A stretch of DNA of 64,000 nt from assembly GCF_003334785.1 (NCBI RefSeq), contig NZ_QOWV01000006.1; one strand, given 5' to 3'. Shown here piece by piece: positions 28,805 to 28,879 of this stretch (position 1 is its first letter; the number at the start of each line of letters is the position of its first letter). Under the pieces are notes generated by a model. It was not told where the DNA came from, ran no database searches, and saw only the letters and a list, made by a program, of their open reading frames with translations. The stretch comes from Escherichia coli (GTDB taxonomy: Bacteria > Pseudomonadota > Gammaproteobacteria > Enterobacterales > Enterobacteriaceae). The position numbers were made by a program, and so were the translations under genes.

Positions 28805-28814
28805 AATATTAACC

Positions 28815-28837
28815 ACTTTAGTTACAACATACTTATT
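28815..28837 (-). other. Replication terminator site TerB (23-bp Tus-binding site) overlapping the tus promoter/start region
   Basis: Plus strand reads ACTTTAGTTACAACATACTTATT, the reverse complement of the canonical TerB sequence AATAAGTATGTTGTAACTAAAGT. Confidence 0.93.
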
Positions 28838-28879
28838 TTATAGCACAGTCGTGGTGACTTGACCATCGTGCGCGTAGTG

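Follow-up and report, generated by a model that had tools for sequence, protein, structure and literature searches.

The TerB site upstream of tus in Escherichia coli has been described since about 1989-1991, and the arrangement is a textbook feature that is already known. TerA, TerB, and TerC are all bound by one Tus protein (PMC8707476). When the strands are separated at the non-permissive face, GC(6) is broken and C(6) docks into Tus, which constitutes the lock (PMC8707476, PMC5291258). The clockwise replisome is impeded by terB and terC (PMC5291258). [quoted passage not shown] Toft et al. 2021 distinguished type II fork traps (E. coli and Salmonella), in which the tus-adjacent Ter is not the innermost site, from type I fork traps (outside Enterobacteriaceae), in which it is the innermost (PMC8707476). 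Furthermore, the tus promoter contains TerB or overlaps with it, and expression of tus is autoregulated by Tus (PMC8707476, PMC8347550, PMC10331603). For autoregulation, PMC8707476, PMC8347550, and PMC10331603 refer to Roecklein et al. 1991 and Roecklein and Kuempel 1992.

The locus analyzed here lies within a stretch of 64,000 nucleotides of E. coli DNA (the window). A preliminary description of this stretch had reported an exact 23-bp TerB sequence, as its reverse complement, directly in front of tus. The site is almost certainly the chromosomal E. coli TerB, doubling as a polar fork barrier and as the operator of tus. The features of the site and its gene are as follows, in window coordinates.

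28815..28837, minus strand: TerB, the 23-bp Tus-binding replication terminator; exact and unique match, with position 1 at 28837 and position 23 at 28815
28805..28814, minus strand: spacer GGTTAATATT, 10 nt, from TerB to the tus start codon; part of the short tus leader
27875..28804, minus strand: tus, DNA replication terminus site-binding protein; 309 aa plus stop

The canonical TerB 23-mer AATAAGTATGTTGTAACTAAAGT was present as an exact copy at 28837..28815 on the minus strand, with 23/23 bases matching. The plus-strand reading of 28815-28837 is ACTTTAGTTACAACATACTTATT, whose reverse complement is AATAAGTATGTTGTAACTAAAGT. When up to three mismatches were allowed, this copy was still the sole match in the window, with 0 mismatches, and none of 100 dinucleotide-preserving shuffles gave any match. 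Thus, the reported exact 23-mer was confirmed as unique. The preliminary description had also asked for an alignment with canonical Ter sites and named mismatches in the conserved core as the finding that would speak against TerB; none was present relative to the Ter core consensus GNRNGTTGTAAYKA, for which TerB was the sole perfect match in the window (0 mismatches). The conserved core is intact, with G-C at position 6 (the lock residue) and ATGTTGTAACTA at positions 8-19. G6, numbered from AATAAG, is located at 28832 on the minus strand, and the plus-strand C at 28832 is C(6).

Three other Ter-core-like sites, at 6712-6725, 8509-8522, and 36930-36943, carried one mismatch each and were rejected as Ter sites at chance level. 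Altogether, the window held 4 core matches compared to 1.8 expected, and 4 were reached in 11/100 shuffles. In the RefSeq annotation, there was no feature at TerB, either in the window (28815-28837) or in NC_000913.3 (1684226-1684248), though oriC is annotated. Therefore, scans based on annotation only would miss Ter sites.

The tus product was 100% identical over residues 1-309 to PDB 1ECR, 2EWJ, 2I05, and 2I06. 1ECR is the crystallized E. coli Tus, and 2EWJ, 2I05, and 2I06 are the lock structures. Against the NCBIfam model TIGR02648 (rep_term_tus), the product scored 549.9 bits with a cutoff of 178.3. The cognate Tus protein is thus encoded beside TerB in the same genome by this 309-aa ORF. 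The tus start codon is the ATG at 28804..28802 on the minus strand. The ORF list gave a longer frame, 27875..28816, starting from an in-frame GTG at 28816 inside TerB. This start was rejected in favor of the ATG at 28804 because the 309 aa are identical to PDB 1ECR from end to end and because RefSeq annotates tus at MG1655 1684259 (gene id b1610). The distance of 11 bp between TerB and the start codon, as given in the preliminary description, is correct if taken as an offset, counted from the final base of TerB to the A of ATG, but the gap itself is 10 nt (28814..28805). Its interval of 28805-28840 comprises the spacer, TerB, and 3 extra bases.

The intergenic region between rstB and tus is 75 bp long and holds both TerB and a predicted promoter. 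Read on the minus strand, it is arranged as CACTACGCGCACGA-TGGTCA-AGTCACCACGACTGTGC-TATAAA-ATAAGTATGTTGTAACTAAAGT-GGTTAATATT-ATG. The neighboring gene is given below together with the promoter elements that we predict from the sequence.

28880..30181, minus strand: rstB, the upstream neighbor of tus; stop codon at 28882..28880; from the ORF list and the RefSeq annotation
28860..28865, minus strand: predicted -35 element, TGGTCA; 4/6 matches, 17 nt upstream of the predicted -10
28837..28845, minus strand: predicted extended -10 element, TGcTATAAA; TG at 28845-28844 and TATAAA at 28842-28837

A sigma-70-like promoter of the form TGGTCA-17 nt-TGnTATAAA is therefore plausible for tus at these predicted coordinates. 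The final A of the candidate -10 hexamer is position 1 of TerB. Because the predicted -10 ends there, the transcription start of tus, 6-8 nt past the -10, should fall inside TerB near positions 7-9. The autoregulation of tus through TerB, as put forward in the preliminary description, is stated in three papers (PMC8707476, PMC8347550, PMC10331603), and a -10 element ending on TerB position 1 would fit with it.

A consensus promoter scan of 28600-29100 reported no promoter in the rstB-tus intergenic region. Because this scanner accepts -10 hexamers only with T at position 6, it left the candidate TATAAA unlisted. Its only matches in the interval were one promoter-like site within tus and one weak terminator-like site within rstB, each at chance level. 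No convincing terminator between rstB and tus was found in the scan of 28600-29100.

The map position was determined by comparison with the K-12 strain MG1655. Window positions 1-61515 are the reverse complement of NC_000913.3 1,713,062-1,651,549 at 99.979% identity, with 12 mismatches and one gap. The whole window maps to MG1655 1.649-1.713 Mb, roughly opposite oriC. The relevant features of the MG1655 chromosome are as follows.

1,341,767..1,341,745, minus strand: TerA
1,590,777, minus strand: dif
1,609,157, plus strand: TerC
1,684,226-1,684,248, plus strand: TerB, identical in sequence to TerB of the window
3,925,744-3,925,975: oriC, annotated feature

The placement in the replication terminus zone, which the preliminary description had drawn from TerB, agrees with this position at 1.649-1.713 Mb, with dif at 1,590,777, TerC at 1,609,157, and oriC at 3,925,744. 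The distance from TerB is 93 kb to dif and 75 kb to TerC. On the MG1655 strands, it has the same orientation as TerC, and TerA is opposite, across dif, which is the classic fork-trap geometry. As a landmark, TerB places the window in the E. coli terminus, on the counter-clockwise replichore and 93 kb away from dif. The orientation of the window, as the reverse complement of MG1655 numbering, also follows from it, as does the identity of the trapped fork.

The possibility that the window is MG1655 itself was rejected because an exact match failed (12 mismatches, one gap, and a differing prophage end). Judging from its sequence, the source strain is a close K-12 relative, not MG1655. We infer the large-scale orientation of the source chromosome to oriC from the near-identity to MG1655 and from the GC skew. 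In the last 2.5 kb of the window (61516-64000), the MG1655 match stops exactly at IS2E inside the cryptic prophage Qin. An uninterrupted 431-aa ORF lies there at 60356..61651 on the minus strand, where a site-specific integrase is annotated in matching strains, and the prophage genes beyond it include an annotated 3'-5' exonuclease. At the Qin integrase locus, an additional IS30 is present in the best-matching strains and absent from the window. At the other end of the window, repeats with a 96-bp period occur inside rsxC (3968-4488), with copies about 88-91% identical, as seen in self-offset BLAST matches against the MG1655 stretch.

The polarity of TerB was read from its orientation. Since the C(6) lock forms at the non-permissive face, this face is the position-1 side, at window position 28837 (G6 end, 28832-28837). 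From the orientation of the site, the arrested fork is taken to be the one running from high to low window coordinates, that is, through rstB, tus, and fumC, and this is the clockwise fork in MG1655. It runs toward increasing MG1655 coordinates, and hence it is the clockwise fork. The assignment agrees with the published statement on terB and terC (PMC5291258). The preliminary description had held that the orientation of the site defines the blocked fork and had suggested checking it relative to oriC. On the MG1655 chromosome, TerB and TerC lie on one strand and TerA on the other, with oriC at 3.93 Mb, and the G6 end at 28832-28837 would lead to arrest of the clockwise fork on these strands.

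The GC skew of the window plus strand was +0.023 overall, and 13/15 sub-windows were positive. This positive skew fits with a region usually replicated toward higher window coordinates, by a fork that enters TerB at the permissive face, position 23. Position and orientation are thus those of a fork-trap site, near the terminus, permissive to the usual fork, and opposed to a Ter across dif, as read on MG1655 with the source orientation inferred. Because the usual counter-clockwise fork runs from low to high coordinates, it meets tus transcription head-on.

Variation within E. coli was analyzed across 5426 complete genomes. The tus-TerB locus was present in 5425/5426 and was always annotated with rstB, tus, and fumC. 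The region was missing from 1/5426 complete genomes and was found once on a plasmid-classed record. The 91 bases around TerB varied more than the flanking genes, with identities of 80%-100% among the 5426 genomes. The exact K-12-type 35-mer around TerB was found in 2336/5426 genomes. Therefore, TerB exists in several natural alleles, of which the window carries one, in agreement with the published 1-2 SNPs per 23 bp of terB (PMC10331603).

Seven strains with divergent intergenic DNA were picked down the identity ranking and aligned. All substitutions were located upstream of TerB or at TerB positions 2 (A/T) and 7 (T/G), and the published core consensus has N at position 7. G6, TerB positions 8-23, the spacer, and the start of tus were invariant, as was GGTCAAGTCACCAC at the predicted -35. 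The aligned strains with the T7G and A2T alleles of TerB included NU14 and O157:H7 DEC4E. E. coli KTa005 (NZ_CP147084.1 2212738-2213107) carried unrelated DNA upstream of tus, and no rstB was annotated under the match. Its breakpoint lies directly upstream of GGTCAAG, at the predicted -35, and TerB and tus are intact.

To cover other genera, 100,044 species genomes were scanned for TGTTGTAACTA, followed by 4-34 nt and then by ATG-xx-Tyr-Asp-Leu. At least 120 loci were obtained, and since the scan was conditioned on a Ter core near this start, they give the breadth of the arrangement, not its frequency or absence. Among the matches listed, 119 were re-located, and a Tus-homologous ORF followed in 111/119 (blastp E < 1e-5, 37-98% identity). 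One further listed match, from a Citrobacter, had its ORF cut off by the end of the locus. Seven listed matches in unrelated taxa (Ruminococcus, Bacteroidales, Helicobacteraceae, Sphingobacterium, Microbulbifer, Companilactobacillus, and Lachnospiraceae) were rejected, and their number is about the chance expectation.

The 111 Ter-tus pairs among the matches listed came from at least 35 genera or groups, all of them Enterobacterales. The genera included Salmonella, Citrobacter, Klebsiella, Enterobacter, Cedecea, Pantoea, Erwinia, Rahnella, Yersinia, Dickeya, Lonsdalea, and Proteus. At positions left unfixed by the search pattern, G6 was kept in 111/111, A8 in 110/111, and T7 in 104/111 of these listed sites, and Ter positions 1-5 and 21-23 were free to vary. 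In 97/111, a spacer of 6-11 nt separated Ter position 23 from the ATG. Longer spacers of 16-30 nt were found among the matches listed in Yersinia (19-22), Mixta (22-23), Kluyvera (18), Entomohabitans (16), and Shimwellia (30); these could reflect a real difference in the leader or a different true start codon.

A fixed-register test upstream of the same 111 tus-linked Ter sites among the matches listed showed no standout -10, TGn, or -35 register. Each of two registers had TGn in about one third of these sequences, and matches to TATAAT averaged below 3/6. The lack of a single promoter register across genera is probably due to indels. The tally of at least 111 Ter-tus pairs independently reproduces the published tus-vicinal Ter with its crucial C(6) (PMC8707476). 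A tus-adjacent Ter with invariant G6 is an ancestral Enterobacterales feature, a published conclusion that is reproduced here (PMC8707476).

A working model of the site combines both functions. Tus would bind the 23-bp TerB as a monomer. A clockwise fork would arrive from the position-1 side, where unwinding by DnaB would open G6-C6, and C6 (plus-strand 28832) would dock in the Tus pocket to give the locked complex. This complex would stop the clockwise fork, which in MG1655 would already have passed dif and TerC. The counter-clockwise fork, as the usual replicator of the region, would reach position 23 at the permissive face and displace Tus. TerB would also be the tus operator, with the predicted -10 ending on TerB position 1 and the transcription start expected inside TerB. 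Tus on TerB would then exclude RNA polymerase, so that Tus would be kept low and self-limited. In this model, the sequence and Tus identities, the map position, the strand relations to TerA, TerC, dif, and oriC, the sign of the GC skew, and the conserved Ter-tus pairing come from the present analysis. The literature supplies the binding of Tus, the C6 lock, the arrest of the clockwise fork, and autoregulation, and the -35, the -10, and the transcription start are our predictions.

One alternative is that TerB serves as an operator only, its barrier activity being incidental since the inner TerC catches the clockwise fork first. In its favor, TerC (1,609,157) is found on the way from dif to TerB and points the same way as TerB, use of TerB is most likely confined to forks that get past an unbound TerC (PMC8707476), and the Ter-tus pairing in at least 35 genera or groups would fit selection for regulation. 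We consider this reading very unlikely, because some of the strongest fork-pausing signals are reported at terC and terB and arrested clockwise forks at TerB have already been reported in wild-type cells (PMC10331603). In addition, the tus-adjacent Ter is the innermost barrier outside Enterobacteriaceae (PMC8707476), and the lock residue G6 in 111/111 sites among the matches listed argues for selection on fork arrest over binding alone.

The converse alternative is that the site acts as a barrier only, lying near tus by chance, with tus transcribed from elsewhere, for example by rstAB read-through, and without control by Tus. This is extremely improbable, as published work, citing reporter and transcription studies, states that Tus controls its own promoter through TerB (PMC8707476, PMC8347550, PMC10331603). 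The two observations that would allow it are that there is no convincing terminator between rstB and tus and that the consensus scanner gave no promoter in the 75-bp intergenic region; they are set against the plausible extended -10 promoter that would abut TerB. The tight 6-11 nt spacing between Ter and the start codon across genera, despite Tus proteins that have diverged to as little as 38% identity, is also hard to explain without a functional link. Finally, a functionless chance match to the Ter consensus can be dismissed outright, since the exact 23-mer was obtained in 0/100 shuffles, the orthologous position is occupied in 5425/5426 E. coli genomes, Ter is conserved beside tus in at least 35 genera or groups, and nothing speaks for chance in the 23-mer, with only the three one-mismatch core-like sites at chance level.

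Within the combined reading of TerB as both barrier and operator, a further role may be considered, although we regard it as unlikely. In its head-on position embedded in the promoter, TerB could work as a once-per-cycle timer, in which each passage of the counter-clockwise fork strips Tus and transiently derepresses tus. If this were true, Tus would be resupplied just before the forks converge, and its dosage would follow replication of the terminus instead of being set by simple autoregulation at steady state. Selection on that coupling would then account for the 6-11 nt spacing conserved across genera.

The TerB-tus arrangement has no discovery value in itself, and its main use here is as a positional and orientational landmark. 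The closest known system is the E. coli K-12 TerB upstream of tus (b1610), which has the same 23 bp, the same 10-nt spacer, and the same Tus protein as the window. The neighbors rstA, rstB, tus, fumC, and fumA are also the same, and the surrounding 61.5 kb is 99.98% identical. Between MG1655 and the window, the site itself shows no difference; 12 substitutions and 1 indel occur in 61.5 kb, and the integrase is intact in the window, whereas MG1655 carries IS2E.

TerA and TerC share the core G6 and ATGTTGTAACTAA with TerB. TerA differs from TerB solely at positions 3-4, and TerC differs at positions 1-4, 7, and 21-23. TerA is located on the other strand and stops forks moving counter-clockwise, and TerC is the innermost barrier. 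In contrast to TerA and TerC, only TerB overlaps a promoter and regulates tus (PMC8347550). The vicinal Ter sites of other Enterobacterales resemble the present site in G6 and core positions 8-19, in lying on the tus strand, and in their location a few bases upstream of the start codon, whereas positions 1-5 and 20-23 diverge from TerB. The RTP-Ter system of Bacillus subtilis is a functional analogue, with polar fork barriers arranged as a trap, but its sequence and protein fold are unrelated to Tus-Ter, which represents convergent evolution (PMC10331603).
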